Origin: a virus
IMG/VR virus record: IMGVR_UViG_3300042402_005830
Coordinates: 11,726-75,725 of that record
Strand: one strand, 5' to 3'
Length of the DNA: 64,000 nt
Translations under genes and position numbers: made by a program
Shown: positions 18,633 to 36,617 of the stretch, in pieces
Layout: every line of letters starts with the position of its first letter
Numbering within the stretch: position 1 is the first letter of the stretch
Notes under the pieces: model-generated
What the model saw: the letters and a program-made list of their open reading frames with translations, nothing else
Databases searched by the model: none
Told to the model about the DNA's origin: nothing

Positions 18633-20435
18633 ATGGGAGCATTATTAGAAAGTGGTTTAGTTGGTAACATCGGTCTTAAGCACCTCAAAGTTATCAAGGA
18701 AGACACTATAAACAAATGGGACAAATTAGGTTTCCTCGAAGGGTTGGGTGGTCACTTAAAAGAAAACATGGCTCAACTTTATGAGAACCAAGCGTCACAC
18801 TTAATTAACGAAGCGGCAGCAACAGATTCATCAGGTTCTTTTGAAACTGTTGTTTTCCCAATCATCAGAAGAGTTTTCTCTAAGCTTTTGGCAAACGATA
18901 TCGTTTCTGTCCAAGCGATGAACTTACCTATTGGTAAACTCTTCTACTTCGTTCCTAAAATTCAAAATTACGATACAGGTAACCAACACTATCCACCCGT
19001 TGGATCACCTGAAGCTATTGCAGATTCTGTAAATAACCCAAACCAAGGATATGATACTGGTAAAAACCTTTACGATAGATTCTACGAAGGTAACGAAGCA
19101 GCATTAGATCCTCCTGGTCTTTTCGATTATTCAAAAGGAAGATATAGTGCAATAACCTCAACCGCAGTTGTAACCCAAGTTTGGGATAGTACTACAGGTG
19201 ATTTAGTCGCTTCAGGTTATGGTGCTGGCGAATATAGAAAAGTTCTTTTAACCCTTTCAGGATTCAGTAACGGAGGTTTTGGAAAACTTTTAGGACCCGA
19301 TGGTAACATGGTGGATAGTGAAACATTCCTTTCAGACTTAGTTGTCAAGGCTAAGAACACAGGTGCGTTTTCAGGTGCAGGTTCAGGGAATTTATTATTC
19401 AGAGTTGTAACTCAAAAATATGGTAAAGGAATCGTTCAATACGGATCTCAAACATCAACAACATTCGGGGCTTCAAATACCGCAAATGGTGGGGCTTATG
19501 ATGACATTTGTAGTGCTGACGGTAAGATTTACTTAGAAGTTGACCTTCAAGTCCCTTGTTCAATTGGTTCAGGATCATTGGACGGATATTCAGGTCTTAC
19601 AACAACCATTGCGGGTACAAGTGCGGCTGGTTCGCAGTTTGAGTGTTTTTACCGAATCTACGAAGAATTGGAATTCGAAGACAGAATTGGTGAAGTTTCA
19701 TTTGATCTCGAGTCAGTTACAGTTTCTGTTTCTGAAAGAAAGTTGAGAGCACAATGGTCACCTGAACTCGCTCAGGACGTTGCTGCTTTCCACAACATCG
19801 ATGCAGAAGCAGAATTGACAGCATTGTTGTCAGAACAAGTTGCTGCTGAAATCGACAGAGAAATCCTCAGAGACCTTAGAAAAGGTGCAGCATGGCAGTT
19901 AAGATGGGATTACAACGGATGGAAAAGAGGTACATCTGCTAACCCATTGACACAATACACACAGAAAGATTGGAACCAAACATTGATCACTGCGATCAAC
20001 CAACTTTCTGCACAAATCCACAAGTCAACTTTGAGAGGTGGTGCTAACTGGATCGTTGTTTCTTCTGAAATTTCAGCAATTTTCGACGATTTGGAATACT
20101 TCCACGTTTCAAACGCAGCTCCTGAACAGGATCAGTACAACATGGGTATCGAAAGAGTAGGAACACTCTCTGGTAGATATCAAGTTTACCGTGACCCATA
20201 CTTCCCACCAAACCAAATCTTGATAGGTCATAAGGGAACGTCATTACTTGACACAGGTTACGTTTACGCACCATACGTACCCCTTCAGTTGACACCAACA
20301 ATGTATAACCCATTCAACTTCACCCCAATCAAGGGTATCATGACCAGATACGCTAAGAAAATGGTGAATAACAGATTCTACGGTAGAATCACAGTTGATG
20401 GTGTTAGAACATTTGACTTAAGAGAATTGAGATAA
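18633..20435 (+). CDS. Major capsid protein (T4 gp23-like)
   Basis: VSVQAMNLPIGKLFY, RKLRAQWSPELAQDVAAFHNIDAEAEL, AEIDREIL, GYVYAPYVPL, FTPIKGIMTRY. Confidence 0.96.
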   Translation: MGALLESGLVGNIGLKHLKVIKEDTINKWDKLGFLEGLGGHLKENMAQLYENQASHLINEAAATDSSGSFETVVFPIIRRVFSKLLANDIVSVQAMNLPIGKLFYFVPKIQNYDTGNQHYPPVGSPEAIADSVNNPNQGYDTGKNLYDRFYEGNEAALDPPGLFDYSKGRYSAITSTAVVTQVWDSTTGDLVASGYGAGEYRKVLLTLSGFSNGGFGKLLGPDGNMVDSETFLSDLVVKAKNTGAFSGAGSGNLLFRVVTQKYGKGIVQYGSQTSTTFGASNTANGGAYDDICSADGKIYLEVDLQVPCSIGSGSLDGYSGLTTTIAGTSAAGSQFECFYRIYEELEFEDRIGEVSFDLESVTVSVSERKLRAQWSPELAQDVAAFHNIDAEAELTALLSEQVAAEIDREILRDLRKGAAWQLRWDYNGWKRGTSANPLTQYTQKDWNQTLITAINQLSAQIHKSTLRGGANWIVVSSEISAIFDDLEYFHVSNAAPEQDQYNMGIERVGTLSGRYQVYRDPYFPPNQILIGHKGTSLLDTGYVYAPYVPLQLTPTMYNPFNFTPIKGIMTRYAKKMVNNRFYGRITVDGVRTFDLRELR

Positions 20436-20751: not shown

Positions 20752-21651
20752 ATGTCGCAGTTAAAAGAAGATTTAGCGGTGTGGTTTGGAAAAAAGAAAA
20801 AAGGTAAAGGATCAAAACAACCACAAGGTCCGTGGGTTAATATATGTAGAAAAAAAGAAGCAGGTGGTCATCCTGAGTGTGGTAGAGAAGAAGGAGGTAA
20901 GAGGGGTTATCCTGTGTGTAGAGCAAGATCTGTAGCATCGAAGATGAGTGAGGAGGAAAAGAAATCAGCTTGTGCGAGAAAAAGAAATAAAGAAAAGAAA
21001 GATCCACAAACAGGAAAAGGTCAAAAACCAACAAGAATACAAATTAAAGGATATAAAAAAGAATCAGTTATGGAAAAACCAATTTTTCAGTGGACAACAC
21101 TCAACGAAAACAAAACCATACTCAGTGAAGGTATGACATATCATATTGAAAATCACATTCCTTTACATGAGAATGTTTTTAGGATGGGATCCGAGAGTTA
21201 TTTCTCTTTGTTCAGAGAAGCAAGAAGTTTAGGATTTGAAAACTTCACAAACTCTATTGATAGATGGTTGATTAAAAACACCGATATTGGAATTTTTGAG
21301 TTATATGAGAATGAGTTGGTTCCTTTGGATATTCCAATGTTATATGAGGCGGAATACCAAGGAAAGAATGTCCAATTAAACAAACCAATGAGAGGAGGAA
21401 GTGGTGGAAAAAAATTCAAGGTATATGTTAAAGATCCCAAAACGGGGAATGTAAAGAAAGTCTCATTTGGTGCTGCGGGAGGTGGTGGGTCTTTGGCTGT
21501 AAAACTTAAAGATCCTGCGGCTAAAAGATCATTTGCTGCTAGACACAAATGTCATACAACCAAAGACAAAACAACAGCTTCTTATTGGGCTTGTAGATTA
21601 CCAAGATACGCTAAGTCTTTGGGGTTAAGTGGGGGTGGTACATGGTGGTAA
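20752..21651 (+). CDS. Basic modular phage protein (Cys/Lys-rich N module; C-terminal KKFKVYV..SFAARHKC..YWAC module, DUF6321-like)
   Basis: Motifs typical of T4-like aquatic phage proteins. Start ATG 20752 follows TATTTAT (track start 20692). Confidence 0.65.
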   Translation: MSQLKEDLAVWFGKKKKGKGSKQPQGPWVNICRKKEAGGHPECGREEGGKRGYPVCRARSVASKMSEEEKKSACARKRNKEKKDPQTGKGQKPTRIQIKGYKKESVMEKPIFQWTTLNENKTILSEGMTYHIENHIPLHENVFRMGSESYFSLFREARSLGFENFTNSIDRWLIKNTDIGIFELYENELVPLDIPMLYEAEYQGKNVQLNKPMRGGSGGKKFKVYVKDPKTGNVKKVSFGAAGGGGSLAVKLKDPAAKRSFAARHKCHTTKDKTTASYWACRLPRYAKSLGLSGGGTWW

Positions 21652-21911
21652 ATCCATATTCTGAAGAAGTTCAAGATGAAGTAATTCTTCGTGTCTTCAA
21701 AGAAGATGTGGAGAACGATGAACTTGTTTGGCATCGTGATCGTAGGGATAGGAAAGTAGAGATTGTAGAATCCAACGAGTGGTTCTTTCAGTTTGAAGAT
21801 CAATTGCCTATAGAGATGAAAAAAGGGGATGTATTTAACATCCCCAAAGAAAGTTATCACCGAATTATTAAAGGTAAAAATGATTTAATAGTTAAAATTT
21901 TTGAATATTAA
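21642..21911 (+). CDS. Cupin-fold protein
   Basis: LVWHRD...EMKKGDVFNIPKESYHRIIKG. Confidence 0.7.
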   Translation: MVVNPYSEEVQDEVILRVFKEDVENDELVWHRDRRDRKVEIVESNEWFFQFEDQLPIEMKKGDVFNIPKESYHRIIKGKNDLIVKIFEY

Positions 21912-22106: not shown

Positions 22107-24890
22107 TCAATTAAAACTATATTTAAAACTAAAATTCATTGTTGATCCGAACCTTGTTTCTTGCCATCTATTATCACCTTCATCTAACTTTTCATTTCCA
22201 TTTAAATCTTGGAACATCACCAAATCTTGTGATAATAAATCTCTAATATTCATTTTAAATTCAAGATTTTCAAACTTTTTGGATAACTGAAGATCAATTA
22301 AATTTCTTCCGTTTTCCCAAACTGAAGGTTCTTGAACATTTCCCACCACAAATATTCTTGGACCAATTACATTGTAAGTTGTTGAAACATTCCATCCATT
22401 TGGTGTGTTATAGAATAATCCAACATTATAAACATAAGGTGATTGTCCTTGTAATGGTCTTCCGTCTTCTGACCCTGCAAAACCTTCAAGATTAACCTCT
22501 GAATCAATTAACGAAATATTGGAAGTAATGTCCAAATTTTCAATCAAATTTACCTTACCCTCTATTTCAACACCTCTGATATGTGCTGATTCAACATTTG
22601 AATAATAAATTTCTGGTGCTCCTGAAATTCCTGTTCTATTAATTGCTTCTATTGGGTTATTTAAATTCTTATTGAAGAATGAAACCGAAATAATTTCACT
22701 TAAGTCAGGATAGTATTCAAATCTTATTTCTTGATTATTAATTCTTGTTCTTTCAAGATATGAATTACCGGTAATAATATTATCTTGAATAAAATTATAA
22801 AAAGTAAACGGGGCGAGTTCTCTAAATTCAGGTCTTGAAACACTTGAATATATAGAAGATCTTACTTGAGTTTTTTCATTTATGGAATAAACCAAATTAA
22901 GGGAGGGTAAAAGATCTGTAATATTACTATTGATATGGATTGGTTTGTTGGAACCAAATTCTGTATAATAGAAATTTTGGTTGTAATTTTCCAATCTTAA
23001 TCCTCCAATCAATCTCAAAGATTTCCATTTTGAATCAAGTGAAATATATCCTGAATTAAGATTGGAGTTTGCATCATAACTATCATCCACATTTGTTGAT
23101 TCATCCAATTTAAACCCTCCCATCCCATTTTGTAAGGTTCCCATATTTTCTTGTGAAAATATTTGACTTGGATCTAATAATAGTAAAGAACTATCAAAAA
23201 CTCCTCCTTGAGGTCTATATTGTGAATAACCTAAATTTCTTGAAATAAAATTTCTTTCTCTGTATTGGTGGTATGAACCGATTTTAACTTCGTTTTCTAA
23301 ATTCAAAAAAGAAAAACTACGAGACCAATCAAGTCTTCCTGAATAAAGATTTTCATCAGAATAAGACCAAAACATATTCCCAGCAGCTGTTGGAATTGTT
23401 CCGTTGGTTTGAATAACTGCCGCATATTGAGAATTTGGATCATCTTCTGTGAGAGAATATTTCCTATAAACAATTCTTCTTAAGTTCGGTATATCTCTTC
23501 TCACATTATTGTAACTCAAAGTCCAATTTAGTTTTGAGTTATCAAAAGTATGATTTCCGATTAATTGTTGTGATAAGAAATTATTTTGTGTGTACCAAAA
23601 GTTTGTCGATCTTTCCCATTGTCTTGGGTCATTATCCATCTCACGAACTCCACTTCTTACATTCACTCTATCTTCAGAATTTATTGTATAGAAGTTTTTT
23701 AATTTTATAGTGTGGTTAGGATTTAACAAAAAAGAAAAATTTAATAACCCACTGTTTGCAATTGTTTGAACAAACACAGAATCATTCAGTTCCATCTTTT
23801 GAACAACACCTAGTTCTTGTTCTTCAAAATCTCTTCTTGTGGTTGTGGTGGTGTTATATTGATTGGAATAATTGTAAGCCCCACTTACAAGAAGTGTTTT
23901 ATTTCCGATTGAATAGTTTCTTCCAATCGTGTATTGAATTGTTGAAGAAGGTGGGGCAATTCTGTAATGTGTTGACCAATCTGTTTGAATAAGTGTTGCG
24001 AGTGTTGCTCTTTCTTGTCTTGATAAATTCACAAATTCCGATGTGTTCGGAATATTGTCAGGTAAACACCTAAATTCAGACCCTAAACCCAAAATATCCA
24101 TTGGACTTCCTTGATATGTTCCAAACCTTTGAAATGAGGTCATTCCATTAACTGAAGTTCCAATCTGTAAGGTTTGGTATGTAATCTCTTTTGGTTCGGT
24201 TGTATTGATATTTATCAAACCACCAGTGAATTCGCCTGAAAGATCCGCAGAAGCCGACTTATTGATATATAAATTATCAATCATATTGGATGGAAAAAGA
24301 TCAAAAGAAAATGCTCTTCTATCCGATTCTGTTGATGGTAGGGGTGATCCGTTAATTAATGCGAAGTTGTACCTGTCATTTAGACCTCTGACGATCACGA
24401 ATTTATTTTCTTGAACTGTGACACCACCCACCCGTTTAAATACATCAGAAGCTCTTGAATCAGGTGTTTTATTAAATGTTTCAGATGAAACCCCATCAAT
24501 AACCGATGCTGATTTCCTTTGAAGAGAAACCATTTGTGTTGCCGATTGTTGATTGGCTTGAGCAACAACGGTTGCTTCACCAATCTCCATAAGGGTGGGT
24601 TTTAAAGATATATTCAAAACCCCGTCCCGATTAACCAAACTTACATTTTGAACTTGATTATCATATCCGATAAAACTGACCCGAACATCATAATTTCCCG
24701 AAGGAATGCCTTTGATAGTGAAATTACCATCCAAATCACTCATCGTACCCTTTCCAAGTTCTTCAACATATACCGTAGCGCCAATCAACGACTCCCTTGT
24801 TTGAGAGTCGTTGACGGTACCAGATAAATTATATTGTGAAAAAGAACTTAAAGATAAGAATAAAAATATAAGTAGGTTAAAATATTTCAT
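22107..24890 (-). CDS. TonB-dependent outer-membrane receptor (Bacteroidota type)
   Basis: Signal peptide ending SFS-Q, CarboxypepD_reg-like domain (LSGTVND..ESLIGATV..SDLDGNF), plug (VRGLNDRYN, FDLFPSNMI), barrel motifs (SRPEFRELAPF, GNSYL, RPLQGQSPY), C-terminal FKYSFN. Confidence 0.93.
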   Translation of the reverse strand: MKYFNLLIFLFLSLSSFSQYNLSGTVNDSQTRESLIGATVYVEELGKGTMSDLDGNFTIKGIPSGNYDVRVSFIGYDNQVQNVSLVNRDGVLNISLKPTLMEIGEATVVAQANQQSATQMVSLQRKSASVIDGVSSETFNKTPDSRASDVFKRVGGVTVQENKFVIVRGLNDRYNFALINGSPLPSTESDRRAFSFDLFPSNMIDNLYINKSASADLSGEFTGGLININTTEPKEITYQTLQIGTSVNGMTSFQRFGTYQGSPMDILGLGSEFRCLPDNIPNTSEFVNLSRQERATLATLIQTDWSTHYRIAPPSSTIQYTIGRNYSIGNKTLLVSGAYNYSNQYNTTTTTRRDFEEQELGVVQKMELNDSVFVQTIANSGLLNFSFLLNPNHTIKLKNFYTINSEDRVNVRSGVREMDNDPRQWERSTNFWYTQNNFLSQQLIGNHTFDNSKLNWTLSYNNVRRDIPNLRRIVYRKYSLTEDDPNSQYAAVIQTNGTIPTAAGNMFWSYSDENLYSGRLDWSRSFSFLNLENEVKIGSYHQYRERNFISRNLGYSQYRPQGGVFDSSLLLLDPSQIFSQENMGTLQNGMGGFKLDESTNVDDSYDANSNLNSGYISLDSKWKSLRLIGGLRLENYNQNFYYTEFGSNKPIHINSNITDLLPSLNLVYSINEKTQVRSSIYSSVSRPEFRELAPFTFYNFIQDNIITGNSYLERTRINNQEIRFEYYPDLSEIISVSFFNKNLNNPIEAINRTGISGAPEIYYSNVESAHIRGVEIEGKVNLIENLDITSNISLIDSEVNLEGFAGSEDGRPLQGQSPYVYNVGLFYNTPNGWNVSTTYNVIGPRIFVVGNVQEPSVWENGRNLIDLQLSKKFENLEFKMNIRDLLSQDLVMFQDLNGNEKLDEGDNRWQETRFGSTMNFSFKYSFN

Positions 24891-24891
24891 T

Positions 24892-26484
24892 TTACTTATT
24901 GATTACAACCTTCTGAACATCACCCGATGTTTGAACGAAATAAATTCCGTTTGAGAAGTTTGTGGTGTTAATTGTTACAGGTGCAAAATCTTCGTAAACT
25001 CTTTGACCAACTTGGTTTGTAATTACAATTGGTGTTCTCTTTGGGGAAGTAACAACCAAGTAATCTGAGGTTGGGTTTGGATAAACATTCAAAGAAACTT
25101 CATTTTGATCTTCAACACCAATAACAATTGGGTTTGCTAGAAGTGGGTGAGTAAAGTCAGCTCCGAGTGCTGGTGAATTACTTTCACTCAATCTTCCGTC
25201 AGGGGTTAAACCAAGATCAACAAACAAATTAACCCAATCGATTTGTTCAATAGTTGTGAGTGAATCATTGTAATTTACTCCGAAGAAAGTATTATAAAAA
25301 TCTTCAGTTCCCGAAACACAATTCGATCCAACAGGAAGATCTGCCAAGATATTGTGAGCAAAAACCAAATTACCTGTTTGAACATTAACTTGTGTTGATG
25401 TACCCTCAATAGATACACCTTTCTCCCATCCCGTAACAAGTGAATTGAAAACAGATGTTGAGGTGTTTCTTCTCAATCTGAAAGCCTTTTCAAAAGTCTC
25501 TCCAACAGGAAGGTCATTCAAAATATCATCACCGAAAGGTCCGACCAATGTTACATTTGAAAAGACAGGTGCGGTTTTTGGTGTATTTTCTGAACCTTGA
25601 CCGTCGTTGTCTGACTCAAAAGCGTTAGAGTCACCTACCGCGTCATACATATACTTGTTTCTGATAGAAAGTGCGAATTGAACTTTTCCTCTGTAGCCAA
25701 AATCGGTATCAAAGTCATCATCAATGCCACTATAAGCGATAAGGTGTTTTGCATTTACAGTTCCACCGAACCACTCAAAAGAATCGTCACCCGAATATGA
25801 AACTTGCACAAAATCTACAAGAGTTCCCGATCCAATAGATCCAAAGGTAATACCATTGATTTCTTTGTTTGGTTCAAGAGCAATACCACAGAACTCAATT
25901 CTTACATACTTGATAACACCCGAGTTGTCTGAATCATCAGTTCCACCATATTCGGTGTCTAAAGAGGCGGGAATTCCTTCTATGTTTGCAACACCACTTG
26001 GTTGATTGTTTATTGCATTTCCCAAGATTACAATACCTCCCCAATCTCCTTCTGCCCTTTCACCCACAGGTTGGTTTGATGTAAAAACGATTGGACTTGA
26101 TTGTGTCCCTTCTGCGATAATTTTTGAACCCCTTGTGATTATTAAGGTTGCTTGAGTTGATGCATCTCCACGAATAATAGTCCCTGGTTGAATTGTCAAA
26201 GTTGCACCGTTTTTTACATAAATTTTGTTTTGAATTTCAACGACACCACCGATAGTTGTATTAGTTGTAATGTCCGAATTCAACACCATAGATGGGGATG
26301 GGTATTCTGTGTTTTGTGGATCCCAATTAGACCATCCGTATGTCCAATCTGTTGATGGTGTGTTATCCGTTACGGGGAACGCTCCTTTGTAATTTACATA
26401 ATCCCATGTCCATTCTTGGGCGTTTGCAGTAGAAAGACCCATAAATACTGCGAGGGTCATCAAAATTTGTTTTCTCATAATCAT
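24892..26484 (-). CDS. T9SS type-A sorting-domain protein with a beta-helix (pectin-lyase-like) body
   Basis: Signal peptide ANA-Q; PIVFTS, GDWGGIVILG, SGVIKYVRIEF, EINGITFG, DDSFEWFGGTVN, DDDFDTDFGY; C-terminal VYPNPT...GQRV...GIYFV...KVVINK (Por secretion tail). Confidence 0.9.
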   Translation of the reverse strand: MIMRKQILMTLAVFMGLSTANAQEWTWDYVNYKGAFPVTDNTPSTDWTYGWSNWDPQNTEYPSPSMVLNSDITTNTTIGGVVEIQNKIYVKNGATLTIQPGTIIRGDASTQATLIITRGSKIIAEGTQSSPIVFTSNQPVGERAEGDWGGIVILGNAINNQPSGVANIEGIPASLDTEYGGTDDSDNSGVIKYVRIEFCGIALEPNKEINGITFGSIGSGTLVDFVQVSYSGDDSFEWFGGTVNAKHLIAYSGIDDDFDTDFGYRGKVQFALSIRNKYMYDAVGDSNAFESDNDGQGSENTPKTAPVFSNVTLVGPFGDDILNDLPVGETFEKAFRLRRNTSTSVFNSLVTGWEKGVSIEGTSTQVNVQTGNLVFAHNILADLPVGSNCVSGTEDFYNTFFGVNYNDSLTTIEQIDWVNLFVDLGLTPDGRLSESNSPALGADFTHPLLANPIVIGVEDQNEVSLNVYPNPTSDYLVVTSPKRTPIVITNQVGQRVYEDFAPVTINTTNFSNGIYFVQTSGDVQKVVINK

Positions 26485-26530: not shown

Positions 26531-26558
26531 CAAAGTTAGGGTGTTAAGAGAATGTTAA
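26531..26558 (-). promoter_or_regulatory. Pho-box-like direct repeat (TTAACA-N5-TTAACA) abutting a Bacteroidota -7 box (TAACTTTG)
   Basis: Minus strand reads TTAACA TTCTC TTAACA CCC TAACTTTG; repeats have an 11-bp period; about 47 nt upstream of the ATG at 26484. Confidence 0.65.
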
Positions 26559-26576: not shown

Positions 26577-26831
26577 TTATTTTTTACCCCTACAATAAGA
26601 TCCTGAACATCTTTTTTTACCATCAAGACCCGCAATTTTACCTTTACACACTTGAACAGCATATCCATTCGCATAAGCACTTGGATAAACATCATATTTA
26701 GACTTCGCCGCAGAAATTCCACGAGCGCATAATTTGTTGGATTTTTTCTTTTTTTCGGTTAGGTAAGCCTCCAAGAGAAATCTTCTCATAATTTCTTTGA
26801 GGTCGTTATTGTTTAAATTAATCTTACTCAT
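26577..26831 (-). CDS. Small basic Cys-containing phage protein
   Basis: KLCARGISAAKSKYDVYPSAYANGYAVQVCKG; N-terminal LLE-A propeptide-like motif. Confidence 0.65.
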   Translation of the reverse strand: MSKINLNNNDLKEIMRRFLLEAYLTEKKKKSNKLCARGISAAKSKYDVYPSAYANGYAVQVCKGKIAGLDGKKRCSGSYCRGKK

Positions 26832-28303
26832 TTTTTACTCACTACTTGGAAGTTTATTTCGTTCTTATAACTAACAATGTTGTTATTTTGATTTATTTGT
26901 AAATCAATAAAGTATTCATTAGGTATTTTATCCCTTAAATCCAATATAAAAAAGTATTCTTGAGGAGTCCTGTTGAGTTCAGTCCAATCCGTCACTTGAA
27001 CTTCTGTTTGACCCTCCTTCACATAAATCCTATATTGAACATCTATATCATCAACAATATGTGATTTTGTATATGCTCTTTTAGGTATTACGGAAACTTT
27101 TCTTTGATCCGTGTTTAATATTTTTTCTGAGTATTTAATACCGTAGAAAGTGAATCCATATTCTTGAGTGTTCGGTAAAGAAGTATCATATTGAAGACTA
27201 TCACTGAATGACTTCAGTTCAAATTCATTTTCAATATTTGATAAAGAAGTACCGTTGAAAATCAAGTTTTTCCACTTGTCGGTGTATAAACAATTTAAAT
27301 TACCACCTGTAATACCAGGTAATGTTACTTTATATATCCCCTTACTAATCCTACAAGTAGATAAATTAGACAACCCCGTAACCACCGTTCCATCTGGATC
27401 TAAAATATCAACTACAGGATTTGAATCTAAATTTATTGGAGATCCATTTCTTGAAATATATAGATAAAGATCATTGGAGGTTCCTTCTGTAAAATTAGGC
27501 CTACTGTCGTCAATTATGTCGTCCCATTTTGAGTATAAAAATGGTTCATAGAATGTTTGTGTATGTCTTGTGAAGAAACCAACTGAATAAGACTCACTTA
27601 ATCCTGTTAAGTTCTCAACTTGAGGAACAAACGCTACACCCCACCCCACACTATCTGTAGTACCGCCAGTCAATATATTATTGATTTCATTAGTCATATC
27701 AAATGAAATGTCTTCATCACCAAATTCAAAATGTTGTGTATCTACTATTGTAATTGCGGAATAATTTACTTTCCCACTTGTTCCTGAATTATCATTAATA
27801 TAAATTCCATCCGTACTCCAATCGTTTATCAATTCTCTTTGGAAGTAGTTTGATGGTCTTAAAGAATATGATTTATCTGTTAAATCGAAATCATCTGTTG
27901 TGTTTTGAATATAATCATATCCAACACCTTCATCCCAAGTTTGAACACTTCCCGACGCACCATTTGATTTTGGAATTCTAAATAATATAAGATCGAAAGA
28001 TGTGGCTCGTCTTCTTCCATCACTTGTTGTTTCATTTAACAAATCTGAAAATGAAGAAGTATTGGTCATTCTTAATTCGTGAGTAATATTTGTGTTACAA
28101 CCAAAATTTAAATAACCATCGGTAATTTTTTGTTCAAGACCTGTAAGATCTAAATCAAAAATAAATCTTGAAAAGTTTTTTGTTCCGATTGCGGGAAAAT
28201 TTGAACCAAAAAATAATTCAGTTACAGGGTTCCTACCTGTATTGACCTCTGAATTGAATAAAATGGTATTATTTCTTTTAAAATACGAACGGTGATCAGA
28301 CAT
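26828..28303 (-). CDS. Putative virion (baseplate-region) structural protein
   Basis: 491 aa, beta-rich, late-promoter motif upstream, adjacent to the spike-like gene. Confidence 0.5.
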   Translation of the reverse strand: MSDHRSYFKRNNTILFNSEVNTGRNPVTELFFGSNFPAIGTKNFSRFIFDLDLTGLEQKITDGYLNFGCNTNITHELRMTNTSSFSDLLNETTSDGRRRATSFDLILFRIPKSNGASGSVQTWDEGVGYDYIQNTTDDFDLTDKSYSLRPSNYFQRELINDWSTDGIYINDNSGTSGKVNYSAITIVDTQHFEFGDEDISFDMTNEINNILTGGTTDSVGWGVAFVPQVENLTGLSESYSVGFFTRHTQTFYEPFLYSKWDDIIDDSRPNFTEGTSNDLYLYISRNGSPINLDSNPVVDILDPDGTVVTGLSNLSTCRISKGIYKVTLPGITGGNLNCLYTDKWKNLIFNGTSLSNIENEFELKSFSDSLQYDTSLPNTQEYGFTFYGIKYSEKILNTDQRKVSVIPKRAYTKSHIVDDIDVQYRIYVKEGQTEVQVTDWTELNRTPQEYFFILDLRDKIPNEYFIDLQINQNNNIVSYKNEINFQVVSKK

Positions 28304-28325
28304 ATTGATATTTTATCTATAAATA

Positions 28326-29870
28326 TCAATTTATCTTAAAGTTCTGACTTAAAACTTTTTGATATGCGTCCATCATTTTTTTCATCAGTTCCGTAGTTGT
28401 AGATCCGTTGGTTGTTGTTGGAACTGGTGGTAATCCATGGAAGGAATGAACATGTGTAATTAGGTATTGAATTATGTAATTTAATAGTTCAAGTAACTCC
28501 TCACCTCTTACCATTGATGAAACATTCCCTACAACATTTTCCGAAATAAAATCACCTGAAACACCATAATTGGTTCCTTCTAAATTAATTTGTTTTTTCC
28601 CTGGTATTACTGATTGGTGTGAAAGGAAATAAAACTTATCCGCTCCGAATATTTGAACTGTAGAATTCTCCGATGATGTTTTCACATCCTCCAAATTAAT
28701 TAATTTTGGTTGAACCGGATTTCCTTTTTTGTTTTTTGAGAATATAAGTCCAAAACCTCCAAATGTTTTAGATTCCGTCGTACTCAATGAAATTCCAACT
28801 TGAGACTGAAATGAAAGAGTATTGACCAAAGATAGTGGATCTGATGTTTGAGAAGAAACATTCAAAACATTTTTGGTGGGTCTATAATAGAATGGAAAAA
28901 CATTCCCCAACGAAGGAGAAATAGCAAGGGTCGAATTTTTAAAATTAGTTAATAATGTGTTGATAAAATCAACCGAACCTGACATAGTAAGACCCTGAAA
29001 CCCTTCGGTATATGCCAAACTTTTATTTTGAATTTCAGTATCAGGTAAAATATTCTTTGTTTTTATATTCTCACCTTCATTTATTCTATAAAAATAAACA
29101 TTACCTGTGAAGTTAGATGTACTACTTAAGTTTATTATATCCCACTCAACCAAATATACAAGATTTGCATCGGTTTGCTCGGCTTTGATAAGTTTTTTTA
29201 AAGTTTTTTCAGAAGTGGTAGTTTCCAAATTAGAAATTTGAATGAACGCCCTTCTTGGGTTTTCGTATGGGAAAGTTGATCCATTTGCATTTCTCAAACC
29301 GATTGACTTTGCCTTACCAGAACGAAGAATAATATCTTCATCTTTTAAAATAATGTCCGTATTGTATCTTCCAAGAATAGCTATGTCATTTGGTTCAGGA
29401 AAAATAGATGCCGTTTTTGGGTTTTTATAACTTCCATCGATATTCTTGAGATCAGGTGACATCTTGTTTCTATCACCAGTATTCAATAATGTTTCCGCAT
29501 TTGCCGAAACATCTTTGTATTGTAAAGTAGGTGAGGAAATCGGACCCTGCATATAAAATTTATTCTTATCATCTTGAAATTCAGGATTTGAATAAACAAT
29601 ATGGACATACTCACCAACTTTTGGTATTTGTCTGAAGAAATAAGGCATCAAAGAGTTGAACACAAAAGGATCTTTTTTGGTCCAAAAATATTTAGAAGGA
29701 ATATCACCAGGAATGTCAAAAACTTCGTTTGGGAAATTTGCCTTGACTATGTCATTTACATACCTTGTGGTGGGAAATGCTCTTATCCTACCCAACACAA
29801 GTGGATCATCTACTGAAACACACACTCCAGGATATATTATTCTTTTTGATGCTGCACTTGCGTCTAACAT
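28326..29870 (-). CDS. Baseplate hub/spike protein (gp5-like N-terminal OB fold, HxH tip)
   Basis: GVCVSVDDPLVLGRIRA, PKVGEYV, DIAILGRYNTDIIL, C-terminal THVHSFHG. Confidence 0.7.
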   Translation of the reverse strand: MLDASAASKRIIYPGVCVSVDDPLVLGRIRAFPTTRYVNDIVKANFPNEVFDIPGDIPSKYFWTKKDPFVFNSLMPYFFRQIPKVGEYVHIVYSNPEFQDDKNKFYMQGPISSPTLQYKDVSANAETLLNTGDRNKMSPDLKNIDGSYKNPKTASIFPEPNDIAILGRYNTDIILKDEDIILRSGKAKSIGLRNANGSTFPYENPRRAFIQISNLETTTSEKTLKKLIKAEQTDANLVYLVEWDIINLSSTSNFTGNVYFYRINEGENIKTKNILPDTEIQNKSLAYTEGFQGLTMSGSVDFINTLLTNFKNSTLAISPSLGNVFPFYYRPTKNVLNVSSQTSDPLSLVNTLSFQSQVGISLSTTESKTFGGFGLIFSKNKKGNPVQPKLINLEDVKTSSENSTVQIFGADKFYFLSHQSVIPGKKQINLEGTNYGVSGDFISENVVGNVSSMVRGEELLELLNYIIQYLITHVHSFHGLPPVPTTTNGSTTTELMKKMMDAYQKVLSQNFKIN

Positions 29871-29872
29871 AA

Positions 29873-30085
29873 TTAGATGTTGGTTCTTTCTTTATACTTA
29901 TTCAATAGTTCATTATAGACAGTTTCAGTAATCAACATATGTTCTGAGATTTTTTCAATCATTTTTTTTGATTCATCAAAATCTCTCCTTAAGACATCTA
30001 AAACCTCTGTCACTTTTTTGTTGGGAGTGTTGTCAAAGTCCGAAATTACGGATTTTATTAATTTTTGTTCTTGTTCTGTTATCAT
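29873..30085 (-). CDS. Small hypothetical protein
   Basis: 70 aa ORF, translationally coupled to its neighbour. Confidence 0.6.
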   Translation of the reverse strand: MITEQEQKLIKSVISDFDNTPNKKVTEVLDVLRRDFDESKKMIEKISEHMLITETVYNELLNKYKERTNI

Positions 30086-32022
30086 ATCAGTTTTCCAAAT
30101 AAAGATGCTGGTGATAGGTAAGGTCCTGCTATTGAAATTAACGGTTGGGAAGGAGAACCCAAATTAATTGTCGAAACTTGAACTTTAGAGTTCTCATCCA
30201 TCTCTCTCTTATAAGCACTAATTAAAGAAAAATCATGAATCAAACCCAAATTGGGTGATCCATCAGGTAAATCTCCAGTCGGATAACCTAATTTATCTAA
30301 AGTTTCTGTGTGATTGTTAAATGCTCTCACGGCAGAAAATCCTTCCAATAAAGAAGAAAAGGCAAGGGCGGGTAGTGGTATTTTCAATTTTGGAGCAAGT
30401 AACCTGAGAAGGGTTAATAATTCATCCGTTATACTTCTACATCTTTTATAGTCACGAATTAAATTAACAACAACAAATGCGATAGATAAAAGTTTTGTAA
30501 TGATAATTATGTAAGTATTTTTACTTTTTTCACTAATATCTTTATTTAAACTAACGATTAGATTATAGATTTGTTTTTTGATCAAAACAACTAATACTTC
30601 TTTGAATTTTGCTTGAATTTCTGAAATTAGGACCACCATTATATTTCTCATTTCTCTTAAGAAAGTTTGAAAATCTTCCACCGCATCTACAAAATTTTGT
30701 TTTAAGGCTTTGAACATTATGAATATGGGTAACAAAACTTTAGGGCTAATCAAAGACATCACAATAATCTTTGGTAATTGTTTTATTATCTCTAAATTTA
30801 AAACAAGATTGAAGTCAATCGTAGGTAGTGAAGGTCCCCACTCTGGATTTTGAGAAATATCTTTTATAGCTTCGATTAATTCTTCTTGAAGTTGTTCATC
30901 GGTTTTATCACCGGCATTTTCCCATATGTTGGAAATTGAATTGACTACTTGATTGTAGTCGATTGGTAATTTTACATTACCACAATCCTCAAATTCAACC
31001 ACACGATTCAATGTGTTATTAACATCGTTATTAACATCTCTTAATTCGAATTCTGTCAATTCAAAAAACGACTCATCAATTTCTTCTAATATTGAAACTT
31101 TAGAAGTTCCACCAACCTCAATCTCTTGAGTGTTGTCAAAACACAAACCAAGAATTCTTTGTATTATTTTCAAAGCAACTGAAACATCCTCCAATTTTTT
31201 AGAACCTACTTCTAAATCCATGTCGACCGAAGATGTAAGAACATTTAAAGAGTTTTTTACAATGTCCGAAAAATCAAATATTTGAATTGATTGATAATAA
31301 TCAACTAAGAAATCGGCGACTAAAGTTGGAGAATTTAATTTAGGTTGAAGAGTAACCTCAAAAAAATCTCCGTAGTTTCCTGTATTCTGATCTTGAACAA
31401 CATATTTTATATCAAAAAGATCCTGATTAGAAAATCCTTTATAAAATTGTCCATATTGTTCTGAATAAGATTGATCACTTTGAGTTCTATTATATAACTC
31501 ACGGTTCATCGAAAAAGGGTTGTTCTGTATGGATAAACTTTCTTTTTCGTATAAGATCTTGGTTTTATTATTGTCAGGAGAATACTTCAAATATTCTAAA
31601 AGATCAATAGAGTCAAGTTTTATGTATATTTTTTCGTTGGGAATATACTGTTGCTCTTGCTCACACCCTAAAGCTTTGATTGTTGAGTCCGCTAATAAAG
31701 TTGGTAATTGATTTTTCACCTCTCTCGACGCATCCAACATCGCCTTCAACAATATATCAATAGTTTCATTTCCTGTTTCAGGATTTCTAACCAATTCAAT
31801 TAATTTGTCATATTGATTTTTGACGGCAGACGAATTGAATGCTTCGGAAGCTTTTGTTTTAGCTGAGTTTAAAGATTCAGAGAAAAATTTGTTACTTGCG
31901 GTCTCAGCATCACCTGATTTTTTTTCAATATCTTTTATTTGTTTAGATATTTTTTTGTATTTTTGACCACTTTTGATTTTTCCCTTTATCTCATCAAATT
32001 CGTTATTTAAATCAAGTGCCAT
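30082..32022 (-). CDS. Hypothetical protein (possibly structural)
   Basis: 646 aa ORF in an operon with the spike-like gene. Confidence 0.65.
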   Translation of the reverse strand: MALDLNNEFDEIKGKIKSGQKYKKISKQIKDIEKKSGDAETASNKFFSESLNSAKTKASEAFNSSAVKNQYDKLIELVRNPETGNETIDILLKAMLDASREVKNQLPTLLADSTIKALGCEQEQQYIPNEKIYIKLDSIDLLEYLKYSPDNNKTKILYEKESLSIQNNPFSMNRELYNRTQSDQSYSEQYGQFYKGFSNQDLFDIKYVVQDQNTGNYGDFFEVTLQPKLNSPTLVADFLVDYYQSIQIFDFSDIVKNSLNVLTSSVDMDLEVGSKKLEDVSVALKIIQRILGLCFDNTQEIEVGGTSKVSILEEIDESFFELTEFELRDVNNDVNNTLNRVVEFEDCGNVKLPIDYNQVVNSISNIWENAGDKTDEQLQEELIEAIKDISQNPEWGPSLPTIDFNLVLNLEIIKQLPKIIVMSLISPKVLLPIFIMFKALKQNFVDAVEDFQTFLREMRNIMVVLISEIQAKFKEVLVVLIKKQIYNLIVSLNKDISEKSKNTYIIIITKLLSIAFVVVNLIRDYKRCRSITDELLTLLRLLAPKLKIPLPALAFSSLLEGFSAVRAFNNHTETLDKLGYPTGDLPDGSPNLGLIHDFSLISAYKREMDENSKVQVSTINLGSPSQPLISIAGPYLSPASLFGKLI

Positions 32023-32393
32023 TATTTGAGATGGTATTTACCATCATCAAGTTTGTCAATGTCTTTTCCAATCAAATTTTGAAGAACATCATCATCAATT
32101 TCACTCAAACTAAAGTTTTCTTCATTGTTGTTATTTGACTTTTCCCAAATTTGAGATTGAAGTTTTGATAAACTTAATTTTTTCTCGATGGTGTCATTTA
32201 TTATTTTTTGTTGTTCTTTAATAATTGGTCCCAAAACTGTAAGATCTTCAGCATCTTTCATTAGTGATGCCATCTTATTTTGTAATCTTATTGCGGTATT
32301 TCTTTGTTCAACTAATTCGTTATAAATTTCTTGCATAAGACCCAAAATAGAATCTTTAGATAATTTAATTTCTTTTCTACGAGGTTTTGTCAT
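32022..32393 (-). CDS. Hypothetical coiled-coil protein
   Basis: 123 aa helical ORF. Confidence 0.65.
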   Translation of the reverse strand: MTKPRRKEIKLSKDSILGLMQEIYNELVEQRNTAIRLQNKMASLMKDAEDLTVLGPIIKEQQKIINDTIEKKLSLSKLQSQIWEKSNNNNEENFSLSEIDDDVLQNLIGKDIDKLDDGKYHLK

Positions 32394-32401
32394 ATCTATA
32401 A

Positions 32402-33145
32402 TTATTCGGAATTCAATTTATTTAGGAATTCAAAATAAAGACCCCTGTATTTTTTTATTGAACTTCTTACTTCTTTGGTTGACATGTTTGTCATTTCACG
32501 GATAGATAATAAAATGACATTTTTGTTAAATTTGTTGTTGTCGTTTCCCAAAAAAACTCGTTCATAGTTTTTCAATAACTCTACTAACGCATAACCCAAT
32601 TTTATTTCATTTGTGTTTAAATCCGATTTCTCAATAAAATCCTCTAATTTTTCCACATACATCTCAATAATTTCGGTGGTTTCTACATTTTCGTATTCTA
32701 AATAATATATTAAGTCAGGACGATTTTCTAAATTGGACGAAATATCTTCATAAGATATTCTTCGGTTCTGATCTTTTTGGTCTTTTATAATTTGACCCAT
32801 TAGGTAATTCTTACATATTGTTCCAAAATAAGAATATGCTTTTTTATTTTTTTCAGGTTTGAACTTATCTACCTTTGTCAATAAAAAAGAATGTGTATCA
32901 CTGTGAATGTCAGCAAAGTCCATATCTTTTCTATATAACTTATATCTTCTTATGATTGAGGAAATCATCTTATCCAAAGGTGCATGGAGGAATTCATCAT
33001 AAATACGATTTTTCTCACCCCATGATTTCGCTTCAAGGAACATGCGCACGGCATGTTCCTCTCTTTCTGCGAAATAATTCTTTTCTTTCGGCTTTCGCCC
33101 TTTTTTTACCTGTTCTGTGTTAGTTGTCGCTGAGGCTGGGTTCAT
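32402..33145 (-). CDS. Phage late-transcription sigma factor (T4 gp55-like)
   Basis: KNYF...KMISSIIRRYK...KVDKFKPEKNKKAYSYFGTICKNYL matches sigma region 2 (FDP..AFxYFT) of gp55-like factors. Confidence 0.7.
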   Translation of the reverse strand: MNPASATTNTEQVKKGRKPKEKNYFAEREEHAVRMFLEAKSWGEKNRIYDEFLHAPLDKMISSIIRRYKLYRKDMDFADIHSDTHSFLLTKVDKFKPEKNKKAYSYFGTICKNYLMGQIIKDQKDQNRRISYEDISSNLENRPDLIYYLEYENVETTEIIEMYVEKLEDFIEKSDLNTNEIKLGYALVELLKNYERVFLGNDNNKFNKNVILLSIREMTNMSTKEVRSSIKKYRGLYFEFLNKLNSE

Positions 33146-33953
33146 CCACTAATTCAGGTTCGTATTTTATTTCCCTATCCTGAATAAAGAAGTATTCTTT
33201 TTTCGCCACTTCCAACCAAAACTTCGCCTCATCAGGACTTAAGGGATTGTCACCGAACTTATAATTCCAAAAGATGGATCCCAATCTCATATTCGTATGT
33301 TTGTAACCAATTCTAGGAATGGTTCTTATTATTGCGGAATTATATGTCATTCTCATCAAGAATTCATATACAAAAGTTAACTTCATAGATTCTTTAAAAC
33401 CACCGTAATCAATGAAAGTGTCTTTTCTGATTACCATACCACTACTTTGAAAGTTCTGAAAACGAGCAAGTAGATCATTTGTTAAAAGTGAGTAGTCTAA
33501 GTTGAAGTTGGCAGCAAAAGTAGCTTCGTTAGTGAATCCTGCAAATTGGTTTTTCTCATCGACATCAACAACGACAGGTAAAAACCCTTGTGATTCAGGA
33601 TATGCTTTTTTATGAATTTCGACATGTTTAAACCAAATCGCAGAATATTCGTCATCAAATTCACAAAAAGAAACCCAATCATTCTTCGCTTTTGAGACCC
33701 CGTAGTTCACTTGTGATTGAAAGGATGGATCTCCTTCAAAAGTTTCAATTCTTACAATGTCACTCAAGGATCCAAAATCATAATCGGTCAAAAATGTTTG
33801 AAGGGATTCTTCTTCAGTAGGAACAATCAATAATTCAGTAGGTAATACCTTTTGATTTTGAATTGATTCGATCAACTTACCAAAGTATTCATCAAAATCT
33901 TTACTCTTCGATGATTTAATTGGTAAAATTACACTTATATTTGAGGTTTCCAT
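33120..33953 (-). CDS. GT2-family glycosyltransferase
   Basis: ISVILPI, QVNYGVSKAKNDWVSFCEFDDEY, GGFKES. Confidence 0.8.
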   Translation of the reverse strand: METSNISVILPIKSSKSKDFDEYFGKLIESIQNQKVLPTELLIVPTEEESLQTFLTDYDFGSLSDIVRIETFEGDPSFQSQVNYGVSKAKNDWVSFCEFDDEYSAIWFKHVEIHKKAYPESQGFLPVVVDVDEKNQFAGFTNEATFAANFNLDYSLLTNDLLARFQNFQSSGMVIRKDTFIDYGGFKESMKLTFVYEFLMRMTYNSAIIRTIPRIGYKHTNMRLGSIFWNYKFGDNPLSPDEAKFWLEVAKKEYFFIQDREIKYEPELVDEPSLSDN

Positions 33954-35014
33954 TATTCTACTTCTACGGGTTTAAGTTTATTAAGTTGTTGTTCTAAAGA
34001 TTCTATTCTTGCGTCAACATATTCATTAAAAAGATTCAAAGCGGTAGTATTAAATTTGTCTTCGTTTTGGTAATTTTGAGCGGTAATTAAACCCTCTTCA
34101 ATCAAACCTTCAGAAACATTATCCTCCAACCAGTTCTTTATATAGTCGGCCAAAATATCAACAATTTCAAAGTTATTAGTTGTCCAAATACCGTTTTTTT
34201 CATTAATCCATTCAGGTTCTATGTAAGGAATTCTACCAATTACGGGAGTTCCTGTGGACATTGATTCGAGAGGGAATGTTCCGAAACTTGATTTCTCATC
34301 AATCCAAACCGAAACACATGCATCCCTTAATGGTTCAAAGAACTGATCTTGATTCATCGATCTCATATCTCGGAAAGTGAACCAACGGTATTGCGGATAT
34401 TTCTGATAAAAAGTTTTGATCAAATTCAAAGAATCTCTTTGTTCTCTTGAATGAATTGCAATGATTGGTTTTGCCGGTTTATCTTTCTCTGTTGCATATT
34501 TTGACAAAGAAACAGGTAAAATATCTACGGATACACCTCTGAAAACATCACGAACTTTTTCAGCAAGTTTTCCGGAGGTTGTGAGACACTTATAAACACC
34601 AAAACCATTCCAACTCTGACCTGGTTTGAGAGTTTCAAATATATGATCATAAGCTTGAGTCAAAACAACCTTACCACAGGGTAAGGATTGAACCTGTTCA
34701 ATGATATATCCAAGTAATTCTGGTATAATCAAAAAGTCCTCAACTCCAACCTGTAAGTTCTGACCATTCACATAATTCTCCTCCAAGTCCTCATAACCAT
34801 CACCCAACCAAGATTTGTGAGATGTGAATCCTTTTTCTTCAAACAAAATTATGGCATTTTTACCATTATCTTTTAAGGTTCTTGCAATATCATAAATGTA
34901 TTTTATCGATGCTTTCGCATTTCCCTTTGTATCTTGTACAAAAAAATAGAATTTATTGGTTCCATTTTTTAGTGACAAAATTGTTTTTTCAATTTTTACT
35001 GTATTATCTGTCAT
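33953..35014 (-). CDS. GT-B (GT4-like) glycosyltransferase
   Basis: DFLIIPE, SSFGTFPLESMSTGTPVIG. Confidence 0.75.
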   Translation of the reverse strand: MTDNTVKIEKTILSLKNGTNKFYFFVQDTKGNAKASIKYIYDIARTLKDNGKNAIILFEEKGFTSHKSWLGDGYEDLEENYVNGQNLQVGVEDFLIIPELLGYIIEQVQSLPCGKVVLTQAYDHIFETLKPGQSWNGFGVYKCLTTSGKLAEKVRDVFRGVSVDILPVSLSKYATEKDKPAKPIIAIHSREQRDSLNLIKTFYQKYPQYRWFTFRDMRSMNQDQFFEPLRDACVSVWIDEKSSFGTFPLESMSTGTPVIGRIPYIEPEWINEKNGIWTTNNFEIVDILADYIKNWLEDNVSEGLIEEGLITAQNYQNEDKFNTTALNLFNEYVDARIESLEQQLNKLKPVEVE

Positions 35015-35297: not shown

Positions 35298-35904
35298 TTA
35301 ATATATTATTTTTATAATAATTTATAAACTCTTCCAAAGAGTAAATCTTTTTATCGTGTTCAAAAGAGGAGTTCTGTTCATTTGAGAATAAAACCATGTG
35401 TTTCATCCATTTTTTATACTCTTTTATAAGAGCAGTATTACAAGTTACCAACACATCGATGTCTTTAAAGATTTTATCAATTGTTTTGTTATTATAGAAA
35501 ATAACCTCTTCAATCTCACATCCAAACTTGGATAAGAAAAAGAGTGTTGACGGTTTTGATTTACCGAACTCGTCAGAAACAATTACAATTTCATTTTCAT
35601 CTCTTAATTCCTTATAAATCTTATCCAAACTTACAAAGGTGTTCATCTCTGTTGAAGGAGCGTGACCAAAAATTGTCATAGGATTTTCAACATATATAAA
35701 ATCATAAAGTTCCTCATCAGATTTAAATTTAAAGTGATCTTTGATAATTTCAGTATTGATTGGCCTTACAATCTCATACTTGAAATCATCGGACACCTCT
35801 TCCTCCCCAACCTCCAACTCTTCAATCATCAACTTCTCGTAAGTAGATTCCAATTTTTTAATGGTGTCCCGAAGAACACCATTTACCTCAAACGCTATTC
35901 TCAT
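35290..35904 (-). CDS. HAD-fold 5'(3')-nucleotidase-like protein with a degenerate catalytic motif
   Basis: MRIAFEVNGVLRD aligns with IxxDxDGVLxD but has E/N in place of the two Asp; EIVIVS, IDVLV. Confidence 0.6.
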   Translation of the reverse strand: MRIAFEVNGVLRDTIKKLESTYEKLMIEELEVGEEEVSDDFKYEIVRPINTEIIKDHFKFKSDEELYDFIYVENPMTIFGHAPSTEMNTFVSLDKIYKELRDENEIVIVSDEFGKSKPSTLFFLSKFGCEIEEVIFYNNKTIDKIFKDIDVLVTCNTALIKEYKKWMKHMVLFSNEQNSSFEHDKKIYSLEEFINYYKNNILNV

Positions 35905-36617
35905 TGTTCGTATTTATCCAATATTTTATTGATGAGAGGATTACGGATAATATCTTTATTATCAAAACTAAAAACACCTATATCTTCAACATCCTTAAAT
36001 TTCATAAGTGCATCATAAAGACCTGAATGTGTTTTGTCTTTATATCTATCTGTTTGTTCCAAGTCACCTGAAATGAAGAATTTACTATTAAAACCAATTC
36101 TTGTCAAAAGAAGTTTCATTTGTTTTGGAGTTGCGTTTTGGCCTTCTTCAAATATCAAAATAGAATTATCAATATTCATTCCCCTCATATAAGCCAACGC
36201 AAATACCTCAATAATCTCAACTTCCTTTAGTTTTTCTCTTGCTTCCTTTCCAATGATTTTATTCATAAGATAGTAACTTGGAAAAATGTATGGATCCAAC
36301 TTCTCCTCTACATTACCCGGAAGTGATCCGAGTTTTTCTTCTGCCTCAACGGCGGGTCTTACAATAATAATTTTTTCATAACCGTTTTCAGGATCACATA
36401 AAAGATCAATTGCTGCTCTCATGGCAACAAACGACTTACCAACACCTGCAGGACCCGAACAGATTGTAATCTGATTCTTACAAAGAATATCATAATATTC
36501 CTTTTGTGAATCAGTTAAAAACTTTTTTCGTTGTCTTTTAGTTACAATAGAATTTATTAAATCCTTTTTATTAACATAAACTTCTCTTGGTTTAACTTCC
36601 TCTTTTTTTCTTTGCAT
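35901..36617 (-). CDS. phoH: PhoH-family ATPase
   Basis: GPAGVGKS, RPAVEAEEKLGSLPG, LAYMRG, EEGQN, LLTRIG, GDLEQTD, IIRNPLI. Confidence 0.95.
   Translation of the reverse strand: MQRKKEEVKPREVYVNKKDLINSIVTKRQRKKFLTDSQKEYYDILCKNQITICSGPAGVGKSFVAMRAAIDLLCDPENGYEKIIIVRPAVEAEEKLGSLPGNVEEKLDPYIFPSYYLMNKIIGKEAREKLKEVEIIEVFALAYMRGMNIDNSILIFEEGQNATPKQMKLLLTRIGFNSKFFISGDLEQTDRYKDKTHSGLYDALMKFKDVEDIGVFSFDNKDIIRNPLINKILDKYEQ

Follow-up and report, generated by a model that had tools for sequence, protein, structure and literature searches.

Most of what is known about how phages control the phosphorus acquisition of their hosts comes from the cyanophage genes pstS and phoA. Here we describe a two-gene cassette, a TonB-dependent transporter and a secreted β-helix partner, on a 64,000-nt stretch of phage DNA (the window) that corresponds to bases 11726-75725 of the 75.7-kb linear IMG/VR virus record IMGVR_UViG_3300042402_005830 (CheckV completeness ~25%). 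What the phage carries is an intact copy, under selection, of a transporter/partner pair of its host. We favor, at a probability of roughly 0.6, a role in phosphorus scavenging in phosphate-starved infected cells, where this host-derived Pho-regulon cassette would be under the control of host PhoB.

Known systems for comparison

For the cyanophage genes, control of pstS and phoA by host PhoBR is described by Zeng & Chisholm (2012, as cited in PMC10976474). The likeness to the cassette lies in phage copies of host Pho-regulon genes with Pho-box-like sites. In the account as cited, the host two-component system switches the genes on in P-starved infected cells, whereas for the cassette the regulation is one that we infer. 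The cyanophage proteins, by the same account, are a periplasmic binding protein and a phosphatase, in contrast to an energy-coupled outer-membrane transporter with cargo of the type IX secretion system (T9SS) in Bacteroidota.

In Flavobacterium johnsoniae, the PUSIV/phoBR cluster comprises PhoR (Fjoh_0543, HisKA and HATPase domains only), PhoB (Fjoh_0544), a TonB-dependent transporter with the domain set PF07715, PF13715 and PF14905 (Fjoh_0545), and the pectin-lyase-fold surface lipoprotein 'FII' (Fjoh_0546; Lidbury et al. 2021, PMC8115612). Depletion of inorganic phosphate induces the Fjoh_0543-0546 cluster by log2 8-10, with values of 8.0 for Fjoh_0545 and 9.9 for Fjoh_0546, both of which are abundant in the exoproteome (PMC8115612). 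The phage pair shares the transporter Pfam set, the pectin-lyase-fold partner and the order Flavobacteriales, and in host loci an OmpR-type regulator and a short HisKA+HATPase kinase likewise adjoin the pair. In contrast, the F. johnsoniae partner is a lipoprotein, whereas the phage partner carries a Sec signal and a T9SS tail. The F. johnsoniae cluster is also chromosomal, and host loci place the transporter first, whereas the phage-borne cassette places the partner first and has no regulator genes.

ElpS (CC0170) of Caulobacter crescentus is surface-exposed, later released and made only in phosphate starvation, its only known phenotype being higher extracellular alkaline phosphatase activity (Le Blastier et al. 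2010, PMC2996285); FI and FII are reported to be 31-36% identical to it (PMC2996285). Unlike the phage partner, ElpS is an alphaproteobacterial lipoprotein freed via a protease that depends on the type II secretion system, and it is neither T9SS cargo nor phage-borne. BT4056 of Bacteroides thetaiotaomicron, 40% identical to Fjoh_0546 and related to ElpS, has been proposed as a non-SusD 'lid' for the transporter BT4055 (Price et al. 2023, 10.1101/2023.03.17.533168). There too, a non-SusC TonB-dependent transporter lies beside a pectin-lyase-superfamily surface protein, predicted on the outer face of the barrel; the pair differs from the cassette in its lipoprotein anchor, with few high-confidence predicted contacts and no clear fitness phenotype. 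For phages, a preprint on outer-membrane proteins of huge phages (Yuan & Chen, October 2026, 10.64898/2026.10.24.761521) describes phage-encoded TonB-dependent receptors related to host copies, with phosphate-acquisition genes among the neighbors of barrel proteins in aquatic phages and transcription detected for some. It makes no mention of T9SS cargo, a β-helix partner or Pho-box repeats, and it favors receptor interference.

The cassette encodes a complete transporter and a T9SS-tailed partner

22107..24890, (-) strand: TonB-dependent transporter, 927 aa, with signal peptide, CarboxypepD_reg domain (nt 24567-24827), TonB-box-like motif, plug (nt 24225-24518) and barrel (nt 22134-23633)
24892..26484, (-) strand: β-helix partner, 530 aa, with Sec signal at residues 1-22, β-helix at ~60-440 and type A T9SS domain at 467-527 (nt 24895-25086)

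The initial annotation of the window had placed a 927-aa receptor 1 nt downstream of a 530-aa protein, and these open reading frame (ORF) coordinates are exact, with a single nucleotide between the partner stop codon and the transporter ATG. Its description of a full-length receptor with signal peptide, plug, barrel and terminal Phe region is borne out by Pfam matches and by full-length alignment with bacterial homologues at 48-53% identity. By residue, the transporter comprises CarbopepD_reg_2 (22-108), Plug (125-222) and a TonB_dep_Rec/OMP_b-brl_3 barrel (420-919), all over Pfam cut-offs (PF07715 at 37 bits with a cut-off of 23.9, PF00593 at 90 and PF14905 at 99). The N-terminal hydrophobic signal ends in ...SFSQ. 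At residues ~103-110, a conserved E-[IL]-G-x-x-T-V motif common to host and other viral copies is a candidate TonB box. The C-terminus, ...KYSFN, holds the terminal Phe of the family followed by one extra residue; most homologues end in ...KYNF or ...KYKF.

The partner had been described as a β-helix with a Sec signal and a Por secretion tail, and this description holds as well. The Sec signal has its cleavage site after ANA, and the AlphaFold2 model is a right-handed β-helix (pLDDT 86, pTM 0.80). Its type A T9SS tail matches PF18962 (32 bits, cut-off 27) and TIGR04183 (28 bits, cut-off 23), and bacterial homologues bear the same tail. The partner-family profile matches the C-terminal domains of the T9SS substrates in 8glk/8glj, and the tail of the model compares with 8glk_D at a TM score of 0.71; sequence searches of the PDB returned the T9SS tail only. 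Flavobacteriales possess a T9SS. PF28492 (Beta_helix_4, pectate-lyase like) is precomputed on every listed partner homologue and on 100% of the Atlas neighbors, an assignment that belongs to the homologues. PHROGs holds no family for either the partner or the transporter.

Host copies adjoin a PhoB/PhoR-like system

The closest bacterial homologues of the partner (up to 66% identity) come from metagenome-assembled genomes of Crocinitomicaceae, Fluviicola, Lishizhenia and other Flavobacteriales, and the phage host is likely a member of Crocinitomicaceae or close kin. In these hosts, the strongest PhoBR candidates lie in one operon with the pair. Inspection of 80 Flavobacteriales loci reveals a transporter-then-partner operon in 72; an OmpR-type regulator comes next at 56 loci and a short kinase of the HisKA+HATPase type at 40. 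For the regulator immediately after the partner, PhoB models give the highest-scoring matches (204-213 bits, below cut-offs), and this regulator is the best PhoB-model match of the genome in G004 and tied best in G001-G003. The kinase is the whole-genome best PhoR-model match in four of five host genomes (G001-G004), at 219-235 bits versus 164-176 for the next; the fifth genome has its best PhoB/PhoR-like pair elsewhere. The association of this family with TonB receptors in phosphate-starvation loci, which the initial annotation had given, is met again in the host operons, and it matches the F. johnsoniae cluster (PMC8115612) and the kinship to ElpS (PMC2996285). Whether host homologues are linked to phosphate regulation had been set beforehand as a check on the phosphate role, and the host operons support such a link.

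In ~6 host loci, a glycosyltransferase and an LpxH-like (PlcP-like) metallophosphoesterase come after the PhoR-like kinase, a pairing that characterizes PlcP-type lipid remodeling in phosphorus stress (PMC4796936). Sibling phages (L020:11713-14826, L031-L033) carry the cassette and then a family-2 glycosyltransferase, an LpxH-like, PlcP-like phosphoesterase of the family seen in the host loci, and a YceI-like protein. The glycosyltransferase and PlcP-like genes of these siblings may represent a phage-borne lipid-remodeling pair.

A second PhoB-like regulator, with no adjacent kinase, occurs on contig 13 of host G001 (L145:7165-12852), where its neighbors are a protein with a T9SS tail and an alkaline phosphatase of the PafA type (616 bits, under the cut-off of 650). 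In other metagenome-assembled genomes, such as at L065, this second regulator sits directly upstream of the transporter-partner operon. The divergent upstream regulator at L065:4675-5364 was considered as a PhoB and rejected, as it resembles RprY.

The cassette promoter keeps the repeats of the host operon

26531..26558, (-) strand: promoter element, candidate Pho box, with two TTAACA half-sites 11 bp apart (26543-26558), then the -7 box TAACTTTG (26531-26538)

The cassette has a promoter of its own, which is of host type and keeps the repeat architecture of the host operon. The layout TTAACA-N5-TTAACA runs into TAACTTTG, a perfect Bacteroidota -7 box, ~47 nt ahead of the partner start codon. 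The TTAACA repeats are kept in sister phage contigs, and in distant viral lineages the cassette likewise follows TTAA(C/G/T) repeats spaced 11 or 22 bp apart. Host operons carry 3-5 such repeats just upstream of a -7 box.

Regulators of the PhoB/OmpR family bind direct repeats that recur every 11 bp. Of 68 host upstream regions, 57% contain three or more repeats spaced exactly 11 bp apart, versus 0-1% for periods of 8-10 and 12-14 bp. For viruses, two or more repeats at 11 bp are present in 53% of 40 upstream regions; other periods give 0-12%, and other viral upstream regions give 10%. Each host genome contains 0-3 sites of the strict triple repeat; G001-G003 have 1-2, one of which lies just upstream of the operon. 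In G005, the strict triple repeat precedes the PhoB/PhoR-like pair itself, a position that autoregulation would predict. The TTAAC core resembles the cyanobacterial Pho box PyTTAAPyPy(T/A) (PMC10976474), and a literature search found no published Pho-box consensus for Bacteroidota. Judged by sequence conservation, the 11-bp TTAAC repeats are a candidate Pho box for Flavobacteriales.

The cassette is authentic and under purifying selection

A check for assembly chimerism had been set beforehand, and it supports a genuine locus. The cassette is syntenic, with the same junctions, in seven independent IMG/VR contigs from different metagenomes (L002-L006, L034 and L042; 77-99% amino acid identity), and contigs of samples other than the likely source span both borders and the gene-gene junction. 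In addition, 16 DNA runs from ~14 studies of lakes, rivers, lagoons and estuaries each contain 50% or more of the words sampled from a 7-kb stretch. All cassette copies are intact, with transporters of 925-927 aa and partners of 530-531 aa. Within the phage lineage, pairwise ratios of nonsynonymous to synonymous substitution (dN/dS) are 0.04-0.14 for the transporter and 0.06-0.11 for the partner, as compared to 0.08-0.14 for the capsid gene, and cassette values stay at ~0.1 up to a dS of 1.5. The GC content of the cassette resembles that of its flanks.

An assembly chimera, host contamination or a recent functionless passenger would fit with the record being a metagenome contig estimated at ~25% complete and with the lack of the cassette in most backbone relatives. 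Given the intact copies, the shared junctions, the bridging contigs and the capsid-like dN/dS, such an artefact or dead cargo is excluded for practical purposes. Joints that skip 5.8-6.5 kb were found with sides of just 20-31 letters and were not used, though they are compatible with cassette-free relatives.

The cassette is an insertion into a conserved backbone

21642..21911, (+) strand: 89-aa backbone gene, end of the capsid block, right edge of the insertion
26577..26831, (-) strand: 84-aa backbone gene, left edge of the insertion

The backbone comparison covered 76 related phage loci that also reach the capsid gene. These loci retain the order p646-p514-p491-p84 facing p89-p319-capsid (the 89-aa gene where present). 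The 4.4-kb cassette lies between p84 and p89 in four of the 76, which form the narrow clade of the window, and it is missing from the other 72. That is to say, the cassette is an insertion, because 72 of 76 phages with the same backbone are without it. In cassette-free relatives (among L152-L228), the gap from p84 to the capsid block can be as short as 0.2 kb or hold as much as ~8 kb of unrelated genes, and this variable content marks the convergence of p84 and the capsid block as a hot spot for accessory genes. At L059, a phosphoesterase and a glycosyltransferase occupy the gap instead of the cassette.

The initial annotation had set the cassette between capsid and baseplate genes. The capsid side of this claim stands, and the baseplate side finds no support: the flank at 26577-35014 consists of conserved phage backbone genes with no PHROGs or Pfam match, and Baseplate_J, sheath and gp25 profiles have no match anywhere in the record. 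The 491-aa neighbor is a backbone protein present in hundreds of viral contigs; its model is weak (pLDDT 67) and the fold uninformative, resembling only uncharacterized myovirus proteins.

Across IMG/VR, relatives of the partner are found at 63 loci, 21 with the transporter directly downstream, always in the order partner-transporter, and 42 with the partner alone. These loci are flanked by small genes that mostly share one orientation (RNA ligase, endolysin, AAA proteins). Almost no gene clusters are common to the viral flanks and the 80 bacterial loci, and a PlcP-like metallophosphoesterase is among the few. In a phylogeny built from the helix domain, the partner of the window falls with 24 other viral sequences into a single group, which is nested among Flavobacteriales (FastTree 99, SH-aLRT 98.5 under LG+C20). 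The transporter is present in early-branching lineages of this group and gone from a derived 12-member subclade. The pair looks like a phage-adapted unit that moved across unrelated backbones, with the partner as the more persistently kept half.

The transporters of L007-L019 and L031-L035 are 853-864 aa long, having lost the ~85-aa CarboxypepD_reg domain and kept the signal, TonB-box-like motif, plug and barrel. A distant pair, again partner first, lies at 77613-81018 of LR745206.1, an unannotated record of a 635-kb 'uncultured phage' (38% identity for the partner, 27% for the transporter). The fecal 'Bacteriophage sp.' records MT838075 and MT837092 also bear the pair; as unannotated fragments of 6-8 kb, they were not counted as phage evidence.

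Other genes of the window

35901..36617, (-) strand: phoH homologue (PF02562, 208 bits), not a member of the cassette, located 9.4 kb upstream of it within the leftward gene block that both share

The phoH homologue scores 152 bits with the NCBIfam PhoH model, under the cut-off of 380; phoH is common among phages. The virion genes for TerL, portal, prohead protease and gp23-type capsid lie at 10.3-20.4 kb of the window. For the capsid protein (18633-20435, (+) strand, 600 aa), the Pfam match spans only residues 345-585, leaving ~340 N-terminal residues unexplained. A full-length FtsH-like ATP-dependent protease is encoded at 1323-3341 on the (-) strand (phrog_4871, 804 bits). Two glycosyltransferases, at 37893-39107 (-) and 45081-46325 (+), belong to the PHROG 'moron/AMG' families phrog_7162 and phrog_24687, and neither has an NCBIfam match.

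Three giant ORFs at 53866-58443, 58487-62062 and 41636-43798, all on the (+) strand, encode proteins of 1525, 1191 and 720 aa with long Thr/Pro-rich linker repeats, Thr making up 27% of the largest. Their sole match is a weak one to phrog_15511, and they are probably fiber- or adhesin-like virion proteins. The Thr/Pro-rich repeats account for the strong negative GC skew at 53-58 kb.

Proposed phosphorus scavenging and alternative explanations

Under the scavenging explanation, part of the Pho regulon of a Flavobacteriales host would have entered a large freshwater phage of the gp23 type as a self-contained unit, at the point where two backbone blocks converge. During phosphate starvation of an infected cell, host PhoB would bind the repeats and turn the cassette on. 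The products would be routed via host Sec, the β-barrel assembly machinery (BAM) and T9SS, with the transporter powered by host TonB-ExbBD. The pair would then capture and import a phosphorus-containing substrate, and the imported phosphorus would sustain the nucleotide supply for replication of the large phage genome. Cyanophage pstS and phoA under host PhoBR would be the analogue.

TonB-dependent transporters are common phage receptors, and the host copies may serve as a receptor for this phage or for a competitor. The phage pair might therefore replace, mask or compete with the host copies, either to block superinfection or to keep progeny from adsorbing to lysed debris. The preprint on huge phages proposes such a role and cites the blocking of LamB by lambda Lom (10.64898/2026.10.24.761521). 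The phage copies are only 48-58% identical to those in hosts and other phages, a divergence that would be enough to alter recognition surfaces, and some viral lineages have dropped the N-terminal transporter domain. However, plug, TonB-box-like motif and full barrel are under capsid-like purifying selection, which points to a functional transporter rather than a decoy. The regulator-type repeats, having been retained, would link expression to nutrient status, the PlcP-like and glycosyltransferase neighbors in sibling phages point to phosphorus economy, and most viral loci keep only the soluble partner. Taken together, we regard a remodeling of the receptor landscape, superinfection exclusion included, as the strongest alternative, though an unlikely one.

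Slightly less probable still is a glycan-degrading module, in which the β-helix would be a secreted lyase or hydrolase acting on capsule, exopolysaccharide or algal polymers, for progeny spread or for carbon, and the transporter would import oligosaccharides. The top Foldseek matches of the partner model are pectate lyases, PL6/PL9 lyases and tailspike depolymerases, all of them weak (best E 1e-3), and the invariant acidic clusters and Arg-Arg-Asn motif of the partner family would suit a Ca-dependent lyase. Characterized members of the TonB-Xanth-Caul subfamily import sugars, and this subfamily provides the best NCBIfam model for the transporter, at 178 bits and thus under the cut-off of 310. 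Glycan binding or hydrolysis was also raised by the Flavobacterium authors (PMC8115612). On the other hand, the partner has no CAZy-type family match, and no carbohydrate genes are conserved beside the host pair, where the PhoB/PhoR-like system, PlcP-like enzymes and glycosyltransferases are conserved instead. A glycan substrate would be partly compatible with phosphorus scavenging if the glycan were phosphorylated.

Several points weigh against phosphorus scavenging itself. The promoter in the window has just two repeats, and the single match of TTAAY-N6-TTAAY in the 64 kb, at the cassette promoter, is not above chance (expected 3.6), such that only position and conservation carry weight; moreover, predicted phage Pho boxes often fail experimental tests (PMC10976474). 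The regulator and kinase are candidates for PhoB and PhoR by rank, synteny and the Flavobacterium precedent, with scores under the NCBIfam cut-offs. Placement of the partner as an ElpS/FII/BT4056-type protein draws on fold, the precomputed PF28492 of its homologues and genomic context, and this family is itself biochemically unsolved. Expression, export and uptake by the cassette during infection are functions that we infer. Contigs from RNA libraries of two studies cover parts of both genes, and these libraries may hold DNA, so that they are not proof of transcription. Finally, new outer-membrane machinery built late in infection may bring little return, and 42 of the 63 viral loci do with the partner only.

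A broader version of phosphorus scavenging is more tentative, and we place it somewhat short of even odds. In this version, the cassette would be a mobile, phage-adapted form of a host phosphate-starvation uptake machine, carried by phages of Bacteroidota and still wired to host PhoBR via the retained Pho boxes. It would be transferred as a unit from one unrelated phage backbone to another, sometimes with PlcP-like genes for lipid remodeling, and the derived lineages that keep only the β-helix would make the β-helix the limiting element for phosphorus capture.

Novelty and implications

The initial annotation had presented the cassette as a strategy different from pstS, phoA and phoH. A difference remains, and the novelty is smaller than claimed, as phage TonB receptors, and phosphate-acquisition genes near phage barrel proteins, have been reported (10.64898/2026.10.24.761521). 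Already known are cyanophage phosphorus genes under host PhoBR, phage TonB-dependent receptors, and the pairing of ElpS/FII with a transporter as a Pho-regulon module. What seems to be undescribed is the occurrence of the pair on phages with a T9SS-tailed partner and a reversed gene order, together with a phage-specific clade over several backbones, a retained Pho-box-like promoter and the PlcP-like linkage in sibling phages.

If phosphorus scavenging is the correct explanation, the phosphorus logic of cyanophages would extend to heterotrophic freshwater Bacteroidota, by way of a whole outer-membrane import unit that would need five host machineries, namely Sec, BAM, T9SS, TonB and PhoBR. The cassette also offers a handle on the widespread ElpS/FII/BT4056 family, for which the induction is known and the biochemistry is not; in phages, the β-helix is under selection even where the transporter has been dropped. 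The occurrence of the partner on at least 63 viral contigs and the recovery of the locus from 16 freshwater-estuarine runs (~14 studies) point to ecological weight in phosphorus-limited lakes.

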